A DNA stretch of 59,428 nucleotides, the filler included. It is 5 parts of 5 records of this genome, joined end to end, with 100 filler letters (N's around TTAATTAATTAA, not from the genome) between each part and the next. Parts side by side here need not be neighbours in the genome. Positions count along the whole stretch, not along the records: positions 40,590 to 45,957 come from SRR20825019_2441; 4 more parts are not named here. The stretch is one strand, 5' to 3'. Both the position numbers and the translations under genes were made by a program. Below, in pieces: positions 20,789 through 46,057 of this stretch. How positions within the stretch are numbered: position 1 is the first letter of the stretch; every line of letters begins with the position of its first letter. Under the pieces are notes generated by a model that saw nothing but the letters and a program-made list of their open reading frames with translations, did not search any database and was not told where the DNA came from.

Positions 20789-20888
20789 NNNNNNNNNNNN
20801 NNNNNNNNNNNNNNNNNNNNNNNNNNNNNNNNTTAATTAATTAANNNNNNNNNNNNNNNNNNNNNNNNNNNNNNNNNNNNNNNNNNNN
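20789..20888. other. Artificial contig spacer
   Basis: 44 N + TTAATTAATTAA + 44 N; abrupt GC change across it. Confidence 0.98.
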
Positions 20889-25940: not shown

Positions 25941-26040
25941 NNNNNNNNNNNNNNNNNNNNNNNNNNNNNNNNNNNNNNNNNNNNTTAATTAATTAANNNN
26001 NNNNNNNNNNNNNNNNNNNNNNNNNNNNNNNNNNNNNNNN
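25941..26040. other. Artificial contig spacer
   Basis: 44 N + TTAATTAATTAA + 44 N. Confidence 0.98.
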
Positions 26041-40395: not shown

Positions 40396-40489
40396 AAGCT
40401 ACGTTACATTTTACGGCTCCGATCTTGAGGTTTATACGGCAGAGCCGTATATTCTGGTAATGCTATTCATCGAAACCTCAACGTTCACC

Positions 40490-40589
40490 NNNNNNNNNNN
40501 NNNNNNNNNNNNNNNNNNNNNNNNNNNNNNNNNTTAATTAATTAANNNNNNNNNNNNNNNNNNNNNNNNNNNNNNNNNNNNNNNNNNNN
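40490..40589. other. Artificial contig spacer
   Basis: 44 N + TTAATTAATTAA + 44 N. Confidence 0.98.
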
Positions 40590-41861
40590 CTGAAACTGGC
40601 GATGGAGGACTGGGCGGCGCCCATCATCGTCACTACCAATGTGCAATTGTTCGAAAGCCTGTTTGCGTCGCGGACATCGCGGGCGCGCAAGCTGCACAAT
40701 ATCGCCGGAAGCATCATCATTCTGGATGAGGCGCAGACCTTGCCGCGGCACTATCTCTTTCCGGTCATGCGGATGCTGGAGGCGCTGGCCGAACAGTATG
40801 GCTGCACCATCATCCTGTGCACGGCGACACAGCCGGCGCTTGGCGTGCGTCCGGATTTCCCGCAAGGGCTGGCGCTTGCAGGCCGCGAATTGGCGCCCGA
40901 TCCGCATGGGCTGGCGGGCAGGCTGGCGCGCGCGACCATCCGCCATGGCGGGACGATGGACAATGACGCGCTGGTTGCGGCGCTGGACGAAAACGAACAG
41001 ACGCTGGTGATTGTCAACAGTCGCCGCCATGCGCTCGAACTCTTCAGGGACGCCGAGGCGGCGCGGCTTTCCGGCCTCGTTCATCTTTCGACGCGGCTCT
41101 GCGCGGCGCACCGGCGTGAGATCCTTGGCCGTGTGAAGGCGCGGCTGAAGGCGGGCGGCACATGCCGGGTGATCGCAACCTCTCTGGTGGAGGCGGGTGT
41201 CGATATCGATTTCCCGCTTGTCTTGCGCGCCGAGGCCGGGCTGGACCAGATCGTGCAGGCGGCCGGGCGCTGCAACCGCGAGGGTGGGCGTAGGCGTGAA
41301 GAGAGCGTCGTCACGGTCTTCGATCCACCGGATTACGCACCGCCAACCGAGATCAAGGGCATGATCGGCGATATGAAACGGATGATCGACAGGCATGACG
41401 ATCTTCTGTCGCTGCCGGCGATTGAGGACTATTTCCGCGAGGTCTACTGGCGAAAGGGCGAAAAAGGGCTTGACGGCAAGGGCATTCTCGACCGGTTCAA
41501 GGTCACCCTTTCGGGCACGGATTTCGCCTATCGGTCGGTGGCGGAGGATTTCCGCATGATCGAGAGCGGCATGGAACCGGTGGTCATCCCTTATGACGAC
41601 AAGGCGCGTCAGGCTGTCGCGGATCTCGGCGTCGAGAACATTTCCTCTGGTCGACTCGCCAGAGTGTTGCAATCTTACATTGTTCAGGTGCCGCCGAAGG
41701 CGCGGGCGCTGCTTGTGACCAATGGTCATGCGCGTTTCGAGCGGCCGGACCTGCGTGGAGATCAGTTCGTGGTGCTGAAAACCGCATCGCTCTACGGGCC
41801 TGAACTGGGGCTGTTGTGGGAGGATGGGGGCTATCTGGCGGCGGAGAACATGATCTGTTGA
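40590..41861 (+). CDS. cas3: Type I-C Cas3 helicase, 5' truncated
   Basis: EDW.APIIVTTNVQLFESLF, LDEAQ, CTATQP, ATSLVEAGVDIDF and QAAGRCNREG. Confidence 0.95.
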   Translation: MKLAMEDWAAPIIVTTNVQLFESLFASRTSRARKLHNIAGSIIILDEAQTLPRHYLFPVMRMLEALAEQYGCTIILCTATQPALGVRPDFPQGLALAGRELAPDPHGLAGRLARATIRHGGTMDNDALVAALDENEQTLVIVNSRRHALELFRDAEAARLSGLVHLSTRLCAAHRREILGRVKARLKAGGTCRVIATSLVEAGVDIDFPLVLRAEAGLDQIVQAAGRCNREGGRRREESVVTVFDPPDYAPPTEIKGMIGDMKRMIDRHDDLLSLPAIEDYFREVYWRKGEKGLDGKGILDRFKVTLSGTDFAYRSVAEDFRMIESGMEPVVIPYDDKARQAVADLGVENISSGRLARVLQSYIVQVPPKARALLVTNGHARFERPDLRGDQFVVLKTASLYGPELGLLWEDGGYLAAENMIC

Positions 41862-41886
41862 CATAAAAATACTAGGAAGATATTGA
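41858..41886 (+). promoter_or_regulatory. Sigma70-type promoter overlapping the cas3 stop; also the protospacer-like target of the mini-array
   Basis: TTGACA (41858-41863)-N17-TATTGA (41881-41886); minus strand reads TTC + CTAGTATTTTTATGTCA. Confidence 0.75.
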
Positions 41887-41935
41887 AGGCGAAGTTATTG
41901 CCCCCATCTTTAGTGCACGAGCACAGGAGGTGGTA

Positions 41936-42031
41936 ATGCGACCGTTGAAACCCGAAGATTTCTCTTGGCAAGATTGGTTGCCAATTCTGTTGGCGTTTGT
42001 GGTCAAGTTTTTGATCGCGCTCTTGGGGTAA
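41936..42031 (+). CDS. Unannotated 31-aa hydrophobic peptide MRPLKPEDFSWQDWLPILLAFVVKFLIALLG, candidate CRISPR-repressed toxin
   Basis: SD AGGAGGT at 41925-41931, ATG 41936, TAA 42029-42031; single TM-like C-terminal helix. Confidence 0.7.
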   Translation: MRPLKPEDFSWQDWLPILLAFVVKFLIALLG

Positions 42032-42036
42032 TCAAT

Positions 42037-42119
42037 GTCGTCCAGTGCCTGCTGGATGTGGATCGAAACCTAGTGTTTTTTTGTCATGAGTATGTCCCTT
42101 CCTTCTTGGGAGGGGCATA
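42037..42119 (+). CRISPR. Single-spacer degenerate mini-CRISPR (crRNA-like regulatory RNA, CreA/CreR-like)
   Basis: R1 42037-42069 GTCGTCCAGTGCCTGCTGGATGTGGATCGAAAC (I-C-type ends, 7-bp stem); 24-nt spacer 42070-42093; degenerate hairpin R2 GTCCCTTCC-TTCTT-GGGAGGGGC from 42094. Confidence 0.85.
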
Positions 42120-42149
42120 GTCATTTCGATGTTGGAAGGGGAGGGGCGA

Positions 42150-42848
42150 TTGGCTTATGGAATTAGACTGAAGGTCTGGGGCGACTATGCGTGTTTTACG
42201 CGGCCCGAGATGAAGGTCGAGCGCGTTTCCTATGACGTGATGACGCCATCGGCGGCGCGCGGCATCCTGGAGGCGATCCACTGGAAGCCGGCGATCCGCT
42301 GGGTCATCGACGCCGTTCACGTGCTGGAGCCGATCCGGTTTCAGTCGATCCGCCGCAACGAGGTTGGCCACAAGGCGCCGGCCGGCAAGATCAAATCGGC
42401 GATGAAGCGCGGTGATCTGGAGGGGCTCAACCTCCTGGTCGACGAGGATCGCCAGCAGCGCGCGGCAACCGTGCTGGTAAGACCCGCCTATGTCATCGAC
42501 GCCCATTTCGAAATGACGGAAAAGGCAGGGCCGGACGACAATGAGGGCAAGCATCTCGACACGTTCAGCCGCCGTGCCCGCAAGGGGCAATGCTTCAACC
42601 AGCCCTGCCTGGGGACGCGCGAGTTCTCCGCCGCGTTTGAACTGATCGAACCGGATGATCTGATACCGCAAGCCGCCGCCGAACATCGTACCGCCAGCCT
42701 CGGTTTCGGCGCGGCGCGCGATCTGGGCTTCATGCTCTATGATATCGATCACGGTGCGGAAGGCCGCCCTTCGCTGTTCTTTCGGGCCTTGCTGAAAGAC
42801 GGCGTGGTCAAGGTGCCGCCGGCGAATTCTCCGGAGGTCAGGCGATGA
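42150..42848 (+). CDS. cas5: Type I-C Cas5 (Cas5d)
   Basis: WGDYACFTRPEMKVERVSYDVMTPSAARGILEAIHWKP; TTG start after GGAGGGG SD. Confidence 0.95.
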   Translation: MAYGIRLKVWGDYACFTRPEMKVERVSYDVMTPSAARGILEAIHWKPAIRWVIDAVHVLEPIRFQSIRRNEVGHKAPAGKIKSAMKRGDLEGLNLLVDEDRQQRAATVLVRPAYVIDAHFEMTEKAGPDDNEGKHLDTFSRRARKGQCFNQPCLGTREFSAAFELIEPDDLIPQAAAEHRTASLGFGAARDLGFMLYDIDHGAEGRPSLFFRALLKDGVVKVPPANSPEVRR

Positions 42849-44713
42849 CCATTCTCGCTTCGCTTGTGAATGCCTACGACCGGCTGTCGGACGCGCCGCC
42901 GATCGGCTTTTCATCGGAAAAGATCGGTTTCGTCATCGCGTTGAATGAAGATGGCAGCGTTGCCAGTGTCAGCGATCTCAGGGAAGGCGAGGGCAAAAGG
43001 ATGCGCGCCCGGCAGATGCTGGTGCCGCAACCGGTGAAGCGGACAGCGGGCGTCGCGCCCAATTTCCTCTGGGACAAGACATCTTATGTTCTGGGCGTGA
43101 CCGCCGGCGAGGGCAAGCGCACGGCCGATGAGCACGCGGCTTTTGTCGAACGGCATCTGACCGACCTTGGCGGCACTGATGATGCCGGGCTCAGAGCATT
43201 GCTGTCCTTTCTGCAATCCTGGACGCCCGAACGTTTTGGCGAGCAGGGCTGGCCGGAGGACGTGAAGGACCAGAACGTCATTTTTGCGCTGGAGAGCGAT
43301 CGGCTCGCCCATATCTATCTCCATGACCGGCCGGCGGCAAAGGCGCTGTGGGCTCGCCTCTCGACAGCGGGCGATGCCGGTGACCAGATTTGCCTGGTAA
43401 CGGGCGATAAAATGCCGCCTGCCCGGCTTCATCCCTCAATCAAGGGAGTGTGGGGCGCGCAATCTTCCGGCGCGGCACTCGTCTCCTTCAATCTCGACGC
43501 CTTCACCTCCTACGGCCATGAACAGGGCGCCAATGCCCCCGTTTCAGAAATCGCCGCCTTCAAATACACCACGGTCCTCAACCGCTTTCTCGAACGCGAC
43601 AGCGGCCACCGGGTGCAGATCGGCGATACCTCCACGGTGTTCTGGGCTGATGCGCGTGACATGAAACGGGCGGAGGAGGCGGAAGGATGGGCGGCCTATA
43701 TGCTTGATGCGTCACCGACCTCCGACGATGACAAGGCCGGCAACCGGCAAATCGAAATCAAACTCAAGCGTCTGGCCAAAGGTGAACATCTAAGCGTGAT
43801 CGAACCAGAGCTTGCCAAGGACGTTCGCTTTTATGTGCTTGCCCTGTCTCCCAACGCAGCACGCCTATCCGTGCGGTTTTACTTCAAGGATAGTTTTGGT
43901 GTGGTCGCCGATAACTACGCTGACTATCTGCGCGATATCGCTTTGGAGCCCTGGCCGGAGGGTCGAATTCGGCCTTCTATTTCCCGCGCTGTTCTGCGAA
44001 CAGCACCGGCGAGAATTGACAGGACCGGAAAGGTCACTTTTGACCGGGAGCAGATTTCCGCTTTGCTTTCTGGGGAGTTGCTCAGAGCCATTTTGACGGG
44101 AGGGCGGTTTCCGGCTGCTCTTCTTGGTCTGCTGCTGATGCGCGTTCGTAGCGATCACGTTCTAGACAGTGTGCGAATTGCTCTGATCAAAGCTGTCATC
44201 ATTCGTATGATGCGGCTTGAAAAACGTCTGCCGCCCGGTTTCGACGGCGATCCCAACAAGGAGTATCTGATGCGTTCCGACCCGGACGATCCCAATCCCG
44301 CCCGCCGTGCCGGGCGCCTGTTTGCCGTGATCGAACGAGCGCAGCTTACCGCGCTCGGCGATGACATCAATGCTACCGTCAAGGACAAGTTTCTGAGTTC
44401 GGCTGCCGCCACGCCCGGTCAGGTCTTTCCTGGCATCCTGAAGAATGCGCAAAATCATATCAAGCGCCTTCGCAACGGTCATTCCGATGCGAAATGGATA
44501 AAGGACAGTCGTCACGCCAAGAAAATGGCGGCGATACTCGACAGGGATATCGGCAAGCTTGTCGCGAGTTTCAATGACAGTTTTCCCGAGCAACATTCGA
44601 ACGAAGAGCAAGGGCTTTTTTTCATCGGCTATTATCAGGAGCGCTTCGGCAAGGGTTCCAGCGATGAACCGACGGACGAGATCGCCGCTTTCGAAACCGA
44701 TACGCAGGAGTGA
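42845..44713 (+). CDS. cas8c: Type I-C Cas8c/Csd1
   Basis: PNFLWDKTSYVLG, CLVTG...ARLHPSIKGV, LVSFN..AF.SYG..QG.NAPVS and LSPNAARLSVRF. Confidence 0.95.
   Translation: MTILASLVNAYDRLSDAPPIGFSSEKIGFVIALNEDGSVASVSDLREGEGKRMRARQMLVPQPVKRTAGVAPNFLWDKTSYVLGVTAGEGKRTADEHAAFVERHLTDLGGTDDAGLRALLSFLQSWTPERFGEQGWPEDVKDQNVIFALESDRLAHIYLHDRPAAKALWARLSTAGDAGDQICLVTGDKMPPARLHPSIKGVWGAQSSGAALVSFNLDAFTSYGHEQGANAPVSEIAAFKYTTVLNRFLERDSGHRVQIGDTSTVFWADARDMKRAEEAEGWAAYMLDASPTSDDDKAGNRQIEIKLKRLAKGEHLSVIEPELAKDVRFYVLALSPNAARLSVRFYFKDSFGVVADNYADYLRDIALEPWPEGRIRPSISRAVLRTAPARIDRTGKVTFDREQISALLSGELLRAILTGGRFPAALLGLLLMRVRSDHVLDSVRIALIKAVIIRMMRLEKRLPPGFDGDPNKEYLMRSDPDDPNPARRAGRLFAVIERAQLTALGDDINATVKDKFLSSAAATPGQVFPGILKNAQNHIKRLRNGHSDAKWIKDSRHAKKMAAILDRDIGKLVASFNDSFPEQHSNEEQGLFFIGYYQERFGKGSSDEPTDEIAAFETDTQE
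44270..44713 (+). CDS. cas11: Cas11c small subunit, internal in-frame start within cas8c
   Basis: AAGGAG at 44258-44263 followed by in-frame ATG 44270; GRLFAVIE.AQ and F.IGYYQ motifs. Confidence 0.7.
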   Translation: MRSDPDDPNPARRAGRLFAVIERAQLTALGDDINATVKDKFLSSAAATPGQVFPGILKNAQNHIKRLRNGHSDAKWIKDSRHAKKMAAILDRDIGKLVASFNDSFPEQHSNEEQGLFFIGYYQERFGKGSSDEPTDEIAAFETDTQE

Positions 44714-44718
44714 GAAAA

Positions 44719-45594
44719 ATGGACCCTATCCAAGGCCGATATGACTTCGTCTACCTTTTCGATATCGTCAACGGCAACCCGAACGGCGACCCGGATAACG
44801 GCAACATGCCCCGTGTCGAGATCAACAGCCAGAAAGGGCTTGTGACGGATGTTTGCCTGAAGCGCAAGATCCGAAACTATGTGGATCTGGTCAAGCAGCG
44901 GGAACCGCCTTACGCCATTTACATGCAGGAAAAGGCGGTCCTGAATAATCAAAACCGGCTTGCCTATGAGGCGCTTGATATAAAACCGGAAACAAAAAAA
45001 CTACCGAAAGACGAACAGCAGGCTCGCGATATCACGGCTTGGATGTGCCGCAATTTTTACGACGTCCGTACCTTTGGTGCGGTGATGACCACAGAAGTGA
45101 ATTCCGGGCAGGTTCGCGGCCCCGTTCAACTGGGGTTTTCGCAGTCGATTGATCCTATTTTGCCACAGGAAATCACGATTACCCGTTCTTCCGTTACCAA
45201 TGAGCGTGACGCCGAAAAAGAACGGACCATGGGGCGGAAATATATCATTCCCTACGGTCTCTATCGCTGCCACGGTTTCATCTCCGCCAGTCTTGCAGGT
45301 GACAGCAAAAAGGGAACCGGTTTTGGTCAGGATGATCTCGATCTGCTCTTTGATGCGCTGATAAACATGTTCGAGAATGACCGTTCGGCCGCTCGAATGG
45401 AAATGAATGCACAGTCGCTCATAGTCTTTAAGCACAGCAATGCACTGGGTAATGCTCCGGCACAGAAGCTTTTTAAGCGGGTGAAGGTCGAAAAGAGACC
45501 CGAGGTGAAGGTTGCTAGTTCTTTCTCCGACTACATCGTCGAGATCGACCGCGACAATCTGCCGGACGGTGTCGAGATCATCGAGAAGCTCTGA
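44719..45594 (+). CDS. cas7: Type I-C Cas7/Csd2
   Basis: NGNPNGDPDNGNMPR, TDVCLKRKIRNYV and DVRTFGAVM. Confidence 0.95.
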   Translation: MDPIQGRYDFVYLFDIVNGNPNGDPDNGNMPRVEINSQKGLVTDVCLKRKIRNYVDLVKQREPPYAIYMQEKAVLNNQNRLAYEALDIKPETKKLPKDEQQARDITAWMCRNFYDVRTFGAVMTTEVNSGQVRGPVQLGFSQSIDPILPQEITITRSSVTNERDAEKERTMGRKYIIPYGLYRCHGFISASLAGDSKKGTGFGQDDLDLLFDALINMFENDRSAARMEMNAQSLIVFKHSNALGNAPAQKLFKRVKVEKRPEVKVASSFSDYIVEIDRDNLPDGVEIIEKL

Positions 45595-45597
45595 GCC

Positions 45598-45957
45598 ATG
45601 GCGGGGGCGGTGGGAGCGGGAGCGGACATGGGAGCAGGCGAGCCCATGCCCATTTCAGCGCTTCAGCATGCGGTCTACTGCCTGAGGCAGGCCGCCCTCA
45701 TCCATCTGGAGCGGGTCTGGGTGGATAACCGGTTTACGGCGGAGGGCGATGTGCTGCACGCGGTGGCAGACAAGGGCGGCAAGCGCAAGGCGAGGGGGCT
45801 TCGCCGGGTGATGGCGTTGCCGGTGGCCAGCCGGCGGCTCAATATTTCGGGCATTGCCGATATGGTGGAGTTTCAACTCTCCCCCGATGGCCGCGAAACC
45901 GCCTTTCCGGTGGAATACAAACGCGGTAAGGCCAAGCTTCACCGCGCCGACGAGGTG
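45598..45957 (+). CDS. cas4: Cas4, 3' truncated
   Basis: ISALQH..YC.RQAALIHLE.VW.DN and ADMVEF...PVEYKRGK. Confidence 0.92.
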
Positions 45958-46057
45958 NNNNNNNNNNNNNNNNNNNNNNNNNNNNNNNNNNNNNNNNNNN
46001 NTTAATTAATTAANNNNNNNNNNNNNNNNNNNNNNNNNNNNNNNNNNNNNNNNNNNN
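45958..46057. other. Artificial contig spacer
   Basis: 44 N + TTAATTAATTAA + 44 N. Confidence 0.98.

Follow-up and report, generated by a model that had tools for sequence, protein, structure and literature searches.

What would a frame of 31 codons do between cas3 and cas5c of a type I-C CRISPR operon, immediately ahead of a CRISPR repeat-like unit? This arrangement occurs in a stretch of 59,428 nucleotides, filler included, which is the whole DNA analysed and is called here the window. Within it, the I-C contig covers only positions 40590-45957. An initial annotation had proposed that the open reading frame (ORF) encodes an unannotated membrane peptide, and that this peptide is a CRISPR-repressed toxin. 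The reading that we favour is close to that: the ORF would encode a small membrane peptide repressed by Cascade and acting like a type I toxin. Judged from sequence comparisons and structure predictions, we hold this whole reading, toxicity included, with modest confidence, and some of its parts with more. The coordinates of the features are collected in Table 1.

The repeat-like unit starts 5 nt after the stop codon of the ORF, and exactly 11 nt, UGGAUCGAAAC, come after its 8-bp hairpin. A 121-nt fold containing the 3' hairpin that lies farther downstream had a z-score of -2.99, and 1/200 shuffled sequences folded as well. The predicted CRISPR RNA (crRNA)-like RNA (crlRNA) would have its 3' end in the loop of this hairpin, about 45-49 nt from 42059. 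A second copy of the 33-mer was not found within 3 mismatches, nor was any direct repeat. The candidate for a second repeat at 42116-42148 was rejected: it was identical at only 14/33 positions and implied a spacer of 46 nt. As only one repeat is recognisable, the unit is a solitary repeat unit (SRU) and not a two-repeat mini-array, as the initial annotation had termed it. Rfam gave no match in 41800-42200.

An 18-nt inverted repeat (89%) is formed by the site 41859-41876 and the spacer-like sequence that begins at 42070. The target and the spacer are matched at positions 1-5, 7-11 and 13-17, and mismatched at positions 6, 12, 18 and from 19 onwards (16/20 overall). All informative seed positions are matched (15/15) next to a TTC protospacer-adjacent motif (PAM), and no shuffled spacer did as well (0/300). 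Such a PAM-proximal match, with tolerance at every 6th position (6 and 12), is typical of repression guided by Cascade. From the TTGACA hexamer at 41858-41863, inside the target, we infer a promoter at this place. Cascade-guided control of the ORF through the SRU appears to us probable.

To see how general this arrangement is, we compared 161 cas3-cas5c gaps, the window counted; the other loci came from Cas5c-anchored searches, 80 in species-representative genomes and 80 in metagenomes. Most gaps (98/161) were shorter than 130 nt, 56 were long, 6 could not be judged on contigs that were too short, and 1 was odd. A repeat unit together with an unannotated small ORF was present in most of the 56 long gaps, and the order target, small ORF, repeat unit, cas5c recurred in other I-C loci. 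The informative seed positions of 20 forward cassettes were scored against shuffles, and in 12/20 at least 12/15 of them matched at a shuffle p ≤ 0.007. The PAM was TTC in 11/12 of these well-matching cassettes and TTT in the remaining one, L127. Their target was on the minus strand in 11/12, typically 11-43 nt into the gap, with that of L050 lying 40 nt before the gap; in L149 it was on the plus strand. Eight of the 20 cassettes failed: L077/L112, L113/L122, L005 (p 0.053), L108, L126 and L136, the last three in truncated or different gaps. By inspection, L077/L112 and L113/L122 have a 1-nt register shift relative to a TTC-flanked site. The genome of L050 (G003) has a CRISPR repeat, GTCGCCCCCCGTGCGGGGGCGTGGATCGAAAC, whose first 8 and last 17 nt are common to the repeat-like unit of L050, which marks the repeat-like units as degenerate copies of the repeat of the host.

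The cassettes also differ in the stems around the unit. In 5 of the 13 cassettes checked (L045, L077, L129, L002 and L126), and by eye also in L050, an exact stem of 8-12 bp (e.g., GGCTCGCTCCC ... GGGAGCGAGCC) brackets the repeat and the spacer. A local 3' hairpin takes the place of this stem in the window, L127 and L131.

The same layout can be explained differently. The SRU could be mainly a CreR-type autoregulator of cas5c-cas8c-cas7c, and the ORF a harmless conserved membrane micro-protein or leader, not a toxin, that does something else, e.g., adjusts translation or RNA processing, or assists Cascade. In CreR modules, as far as the accessible texts describe them, a degenerate repeat unit serves as the guide that brings the effector to a promoter upstream of the effector genes, resulting in negative feedback, and CreR autorepression of effectors, type I included, is established there for I-B, I-E and V-A. 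The target in the window does precede the Cascade genes, with no terminator predicted between the SRU and cas5c. Moreover, in the four reverse-oriented cassettes scored, of 16, the target is just upstream of cas5c, and with respect to the cas operon neither its strand nor its PAM side is changed. However, an autoregulator needs no ORF, whereas this slot is filled by conserved peptides from several families that are unrelated; in the accessible descriptions of CreR modules, no coding cargo separates the target from the guide. The amino-acid sequence of the ORF is under constraint, and published I-C units of the same layout govern cargo genes, according to the available part of their description. 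We consider autoregulation with a harmless peptide unlikely, though it is the most serious of the competing explanations, and prefer the Cascade-repressed toxin-like peptide.

The ORF itself is where the initial annotation had placed it, with an AGGAGGT Shine-Dalgarno (SD) sequence in front, downstream of the target and 5 nt before the repeat. Its ATG (41936) is 5 nt past the GGAGG core and its TAA stop codon is at 42029-42031; ORF calling extends the frame to the GTG at 41930, which gives 33 amino acids (aa). The mean Kyte-Doolittle value across residues 15-31 (17 residues) is 2.56, and AlphaFold2, run with a 16-row alignment, predicted a single helix of residues 11-30 (mean predicted local distance difference test score 82; block means 64/87/96/77). 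The peptide thus modelled looks membrane-spanning, small and hydrophobic with a single helix, and a size of 31 aa is that of type I toxins, as had been proposed. It is also unannotated, as claimed: the exact sequence is absent from a collection of 15 billion proteins, Pfam contains no family for it at E ≤ 1, NCBIfam and PADLOC are likewise without a family, and the best result in the ESM Atlas was a 0.75 match to an unnamed cluster. Among public sequencing runs, the stretch is identical in X1, its probable source, and a contig of X2 is identical over 41816-42600. Run X3 contains a relative, 95-99% alike, in which 1 nt is deleted at 42025, within the four G's that directly precede the stop codon; this deletion would replace the stop and lengthen the C-terminus of the peptide into the repeat unit.

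Relatives of the ORF were found by reading the long cas3-cas5c gaps. Homologues in the same slot are present in L127, L131, L045, L050, L077/L112 (with identical gaps), L129 and L042, and each of these ORFs is followed by a ...GGAT(C/A/T)GAAAC unit. The nearest relative of the window peptide is the 31-aa product of the L127 ORF, MKIPDPNRPHWTEWVPMVLAAIAKLILLLIG; that of L131 is MRPDPWRAHEWLAVLLAILIKLLKWL, and the ORFs of L045, L050, L077 and L129 are of the type MRLPP.KDREFW followed by a helix. SD-like purine runs precede the ORF also in L045, L042, L131 and L129. A profile search of 1.84 billion cluster representatives gave 13 proteins at E ≤ 1e-3 (31-54 aa, best E 5.3e-11); 9/13 were looked up, and had no name beyond 'hypothetical protein' and 1-2 members per cluster. 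In the alignment of the family, Met-Arg, one or two Pro and a charged stretch are followed by Phe-Trp, about 10 hydrophobic residues, Lys or Arg, and about 7 more hydrophobic residues; the Trp of Phe-Trp is invariant in the main family. The subfamily of the window (window, L127 and L131) aligned with the main family over its full length in hhalign (probability 89.8%, E 1.8e-6). The family profile matched genomes G002 and G003 at the cas-gap copy only. A profile of the window subfamily gave 18 matches at E ≤ 0.05 in 401 Hyphomicrobiales genomes, which is about the number expected by chance, and no new locus with a cas3 or cas5c match.

The conservation is that of a protein. In an ungapped BLOSUM62 comparison, the window and L127 score 62 in the frame of the ORF and at most 28 in the other five frames, and none of 20000 shuffles reached 62, including those in which the polar and the hydrophobic halves were shuffled separately. 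Additionally, L050 and L077 differ at 10, 8 and 24 sites in codon positions 1, 2 and 3, respectively. The expectation that the ORF would be conserved was borne out, and we regard it as very likely that it is a real conserved protein-coding gene.

Conservation at the amino-acid level also bears on a CreT-like explanation, in which the harm would come from translating the ORF, by stalling at N-terminal proline codons or by tRNA sequestration, and not from the peptide. Most family members begin with MR(L/I)PP; the CreT of Pseudomonas aeruginosa works, as described in the accessible part of the source, via two consecutive proline codons after a strong SD sequence, and haloarchaeal CreT toxins are described there as using rare codons. 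The window peptide, beginning with MRPLKP, has no consecutive prolines, however, and the Arg and Pro codons vary within the family (ATG CGA / CGC / CGG), so that it is the residue and not the codon that is conserved. A conserved helix, with the invariant Trp and the Lys or Arg, takes up about 20 more codons; the published proline toxin, as far as the source describes it, stops right after its two Pro codons. We therefore find this explanation very unlikely. Least probable of all is that the ORF has no function of its own, being a chance or decaying frame that lies in the leader of a regulatory repeat unit: the frame is unannotated and short, its exact sequence is missing from the protein collection, a stop or a frameshift is present in 5/14 family loci and the 1-nt deletion at 42025 in a close relative, yet its conservation is frame-specific beyond that of any of the 20000 shuffles, it has 13 significant database relatives, and its length, slot and SD sequence recur across distant taxa.

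The disrupted copies deserve a closer look. Codon 12, that of the invariant Trp, is TGA in L005, TAG in L104 and TGA in L113/L122, i.e., it is a stop codon in three independent lineages, and the ORF of L002 is frameshifted; the 5/14 disrupted loci correspond to 4/12 distinct sequences. The frame downstream of the codon-12 stops is open, and in L104 and L005 it still encodes a hydrophobic sequence. A G-to-A change is the easiest route from TGG to a stop codon. The recurrent stop at codon 12, the frameshift and the patchy distribution of the family are hints that the gene has a cost. Alternatively, TGA or TAG at this codon may be an attenuator, leaky through some read-through, and not a knockout.

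Taken together, these observations suggest the following sequence of events. A small cargo gene would have been inserted into the cas3-cas5c gap of a type I-C operon and be governed by the SRU. Transcription from the promoter at the cas3 stop codon, and any read-through from cas3, would give one RNA with the ORF, the SRU and probably cas5c-cas8c-cas7c. Cas5c would cut this RNA after the hairpin of the repeat-like unit, leaving a crRNA-like RNA with an 11-nt handle, a spacer-like part of about 35 nt and the 3' hairpin. In Cascade, this RNA would pair, at the TTC-flanked site that covers the -35 box, with the 17 nucleotides next to the PAM. So short a duplex would not allow cleavage by Cas3; it would shut the promoter, and also stop any transcription that enters the ORF from cas3, so that the peptide is kept low. 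Upon the loss or titration of Cascade, or its blocking by anti-CRISPR proteins, the promoter would open, and the peptide would accumulate, damage the membrane and stop growth, resulting in addiction to Cascade or in abortive infection. As no terminator separates the SRU from cas5c, the shared promoter probably feeds the guide and the Cascade genes too, in negative feedback. In this scheme, RNA processing, repression and above all toxicity are steps that we infer.

Several results weigh against a Cascade-repressed toxin. As to the targeted promoter of the initial annotation, the target was confirmed and the promoter is putative: the TTGACA hexamer is present, but a strict sigma-70 scan gave 0 sites in 41700-42300. 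No RNA run was found to contain the stretch. Known toxin families in Pfam, NCBIfam and PADLOC gave no match to the peptide, and in hhalign the Ldr profile reached a probability of 27.7% with the main family and of 0.9% with the window subfamily. The tblastn check of cas3-cas5 gaps suggested in the initial annotation found no match to the window peptide in the gaps of the first 80 loci at E ≤ 10, the same-slot relatives having emerged on reading the gaps. The main-family hidden Markov model (HMM) matched the window peptide with an E of 0.39 among 24532 segments; as the plain HMM gives only this value, the link between the window peptide and the main family rests on hhalign and the shared slot. 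The family is rare, its profile matching 0/400 other sampled Alphaproteobacteria. The disrupted copies fit knockouts of a harmful gene, and equally the neutral decay of a useless ORF. Moreover, since the peptide is apparently co-transcribed with its own repressor and the Cascade genes, its basal expression must be tolerated, and the circuit could be mainly one of cas autoregulation.

The control circuit resembles systems that are already known. The type I-C CRISPR-supervised immune systems (CRISIS) have, according to the accessible text of the preprint (bioRxiv 10.1101/2024.12.27.630466), a cargo between cas3 and cas5c that is followed by an SRU and then by cas5c. Cas5c cleaves after the hairpin, leaving an 11-nt handle, and the crlRNAs are 48-50 nt long and end in the loop of a 3' hairpin; the target has a partial match of the 16-bp type with a TTC (or TTA) PAM and mismatches at positions 6/12 or PAM-distal ones. 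Promoters are repressed 4.8- to 60-fold, and the cargoes include Nezha, Gabija, a sole Sir2 (about 440 aa), a two-transmembrane (2TM) protein, and TIR/caspase sets. The cargo slot, the order around the SRU, the hairpin with its 11-nt handle, the 3' hairpin, the TTC PAM and the mismatches at positions 6 and 12 are all present in the window, and on every feature that can be read from sequence, its predicted circuit belongs to the I-C SRU/crlRNA cargo architecture. The difference is in the cargo: those named in the accessible text of the preprint are protein defence systems, whereas here it is one unannotated 31-aa single-helix peptide.

In CrePA of Acinetobacter type I-F systems, the toxin CreP, 103 aa long and with a KilAC domain, blocks cell division, the PAM is CC, creA has two repeats, and anti-CRISPRs de-repress the toxin (bioRxiv 10.1101/2024.01.05.574328, as far as its text was available). 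As in CrePA, a protein-coding gene occupies the gap between cas3 and the effector genes, and a site upstream of it is matched by an adjacent crRNA-like guide. In contrast to CrePA, the system in the window is of type I-C and not I-F, has one repeat, and encodes a membrane-helix peptide without a Pfam domain, KilAC included. The CreTA RNA toxins are described, in the accessible sources, from I-B haloarchaea and from I-F systems of Acinetobacter and P. aeruginosa, with an addiction or anti-anti-CRISPR logic. They too are small cryptic elements with a strong SD sequence that adjoin cas genes and have a degenerate repeat unit, and CreT is silenced by Cascade. However, CreT, as those sources describe it, is an RNA or a mini-ORF of about 5 codons acting via rare or proline codons, while the frame in the window has 31 codons and is conserved at the amino-acid level; also, most creA described there have two flanking degenerate repeats, and here there is one.

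The peptide, in turn, can be compared with type I toxins, which a review of December 2025 describes, in its accessible part, as short hydrophobic peptides that depolarise or permeabilise the membrane. Like E. coli LdrA-C, it is of a length of about 30-35 aa and has a polar N-terminus followed by a single hydrophobic helix, and the main family shares with Ldr a local F-W-(S/H)-D motif plus helix over 16 columns. The window peptide had no match to Ldr_toxin (PF13940) in hmmscan. Unlike in type I toxin-antitoxin systems, its predicted control is transcriptional, by Cascade; no antisense RNA antitoxin was evident, and no search was aimed at one.

The literature searched, which did not comprise supplementary tables and subscription journals, contained neither a membrane peptide of about 30 aa as a CRISPR-repressed cargo nor a CreT or CreP of type I-C; loci of this kind may figure in Supplementary Data 1 of the CRISIS preprint. 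What is new, then, is a very small peptide cargo of an unnamed family, the concept itself being already known from CRISIS and CreP. What the initial annotation observed is confirmed, apart from the mini-array, and its CRISPR-repressed toxin is supported in part, by a conserved gene for a helix, a guide and target that match in the manner of Cascade, and an order that recurs.

The genes around the element define its setting. The Pfam matches of cas3, cas5c, cas8c and cas7c identify a type I-C effector operon, and the small ORF and the repeat-like unit sit inside its cas3-cas5c gap, between the end of cas3 (41861) and the start of cas5c (42150). The G+C content of this gap (41862-42149) is 0.47, as is that of the ORF, compared with 0.63 in the flanking cas3 and cas5c, and this low value fits an inserted cassette. 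TTG 42150 is the likelier start of cas5c, as many relatives align from residue 8 of the ORF that begins at ATG 42129. In tblastn with the Cas3 proteins of L001 and L007, the alignment began only at 40590; the truncation of cas3 is the end of the contig and not biology. The 120-aa piece encoded at 45598..45957 had no match in Pfam; we take it to be cas4 from the I-C gene order.

Table 1. Features of the I-C contig, with positions counted along the window
Feature	Position	Strand	Details
cas3, 3' part (about residues 362-783)	40590..41861	+	Pfam Cas3-like_C_2, Helicase_C
Predicted Cascade-crlRNA target	41855..41878	-	PAM TTC 41878-41876; protospacer from 41875 leftwards
TTGACA, perfect -35-like hexamer	41858..41863	+	from sequence; within target, overlaps cas3 stop codon
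Shine-Dalgarno AGGAGGT	41925..41931	+	from sequence
ORF, 31 codons + TAA, MRPLKPEDFSWQDWLPILLAFVVKFLIALLG	41936..42031	+	polar N-terminus, hydrophobic helix of residues 11-30 with Lys24
Repeat-like unit, 33 nt, GTCGTCCAGTGCCTGCTGGATGTGGATCGAAAC	42037..42069	+	8-bp hairpin, 42039-42046 with 42051-42058
5'-handle, 11 nt, TGGATCGAAAC	42059..42069	+	directly after hairpin
Spacer-like sequence, begins CTAGTGTTTTTTTGTCA...	42070..42103	+	seed 42070-42086 complementary to target
3' hairpin, loop about 42103-42107	42086..42124	+	in centroid structure
cas5c	42150..42848	+	PF09704, E 1.3e-45; start probably TTG 42150, in-frame ATG 42129
cas8c (Csd1)	42845..44713	+	PF09709, E 4.5e-156
cas7c	44710..45594	+	PF05107, E 2.1e-103
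Next operon gene, 5' part (cas4 position)	45598..45957	+	cut by contig end; same position in relatives, 71-91% identity

Beyond this contig, the context is not informative. The window contains four linkers of the form N44-TTAATTAATTAA-N44 (20789-20888, 25941-26040, 40490-40589 and 45958-46057), and its G+C content jumps at the linkers (about 0.39, 0.51, 0.60, 0.47, 0.58 and 0.62 along the window). At least five contigs, very unlike in composition and possibly from more than one organism, make up the window. As these are joined contigs, a gene neighbourhood across the linkers is meaningless, and the truncated cas3, the missing cas1, cas2 and array, and the epmB-like, epmA-like and efp neighbours are therefore assembly artefacts and not features of the system. 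A Cascade-only relic, without the cas3 N-terminus, cas1, cas2 and array and adjoining efp, epmA and epmB, was ruled out by the linkers and the jumps in G+C content. Repeat searches found no CRISPR array anywhere in the window. The apparent CRISPR repeat end at 40470-40477 was dismissed as chance, GGATCGAAAC with at most 1 mismatch having 4 matches against 4.8 expected.

The slot between cas3 and cas5c holds other genes in other loci. A second type of cassette lies on the opposite strand in 15 gaps (including L013, L020, L021, L034, L048, L057, L060, L072, L082, L093 and L103). Its ORF of 26-32 aa is not hydrophobic but Arg-rich, of the type MRRRRYALRI.VGPLKIEIELDLEPI, with a repeat unit alongside, and the TTC-flanked target of these cassettes shares their strand and is near cas5c. 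In L143, L149, L151, L154 and L155, the slot contains, ahead of the repeat unit, other hydrophobic ORFs (50-62 aa) that are unrelated. TTC-flanked targets were scored for L149, L154 and L155; the unit of L143 and L151 has two repeats, and the ORF of L151 seems to be divided between two frames. A conserved ORF of about 100 aa (..KI.WPNGKIYVGSD..), which we presume from its look to be GIY-YIG-like, is present in the gap of L028, L033, L049, L055, L088, L101, L102 and L123, and is degenerate in L012, L043 and L100; no convincing repeat unit lies beside this family. Runs X1 and X4 contain a second I-C locus, about 85% alike, in which 41826-42137 (about 310 nt) is replaced by 350 unrelated letters, which suggests that the slot is exchangeable between close loci.

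The slot thus contains at least three unrelated families of small ORFs in two orientations (the MRxPP..FW helix, the hydrophobic ORFs of 50-62 aa, and the reverse-strand MRRRRYALRI..LDLEPI). That it would host a whole class of CRISPR-supervised micro-peptide toxins, serving as frequent guards of Cascade in Alphaproteobacteria, is a tentative idea that we consider rather doubtful.

At about 290 bp, the module is compact, which makes it handy for studies of anti-anti-CRISPR biology; it might also serve type I-C tools as a kill-switch part. Should the peptide prove toxic, no smaller protein cargo policed by Cascade would be known, and it would join the type I membrane-peptide toxins with CRISPR-repressed toxins and supervised defence. 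In that case, gene callers, as well as cargo surveys based on annotated genes, would be missing a whole layer of CRISPR-linked modules of addiction or abortive infection.

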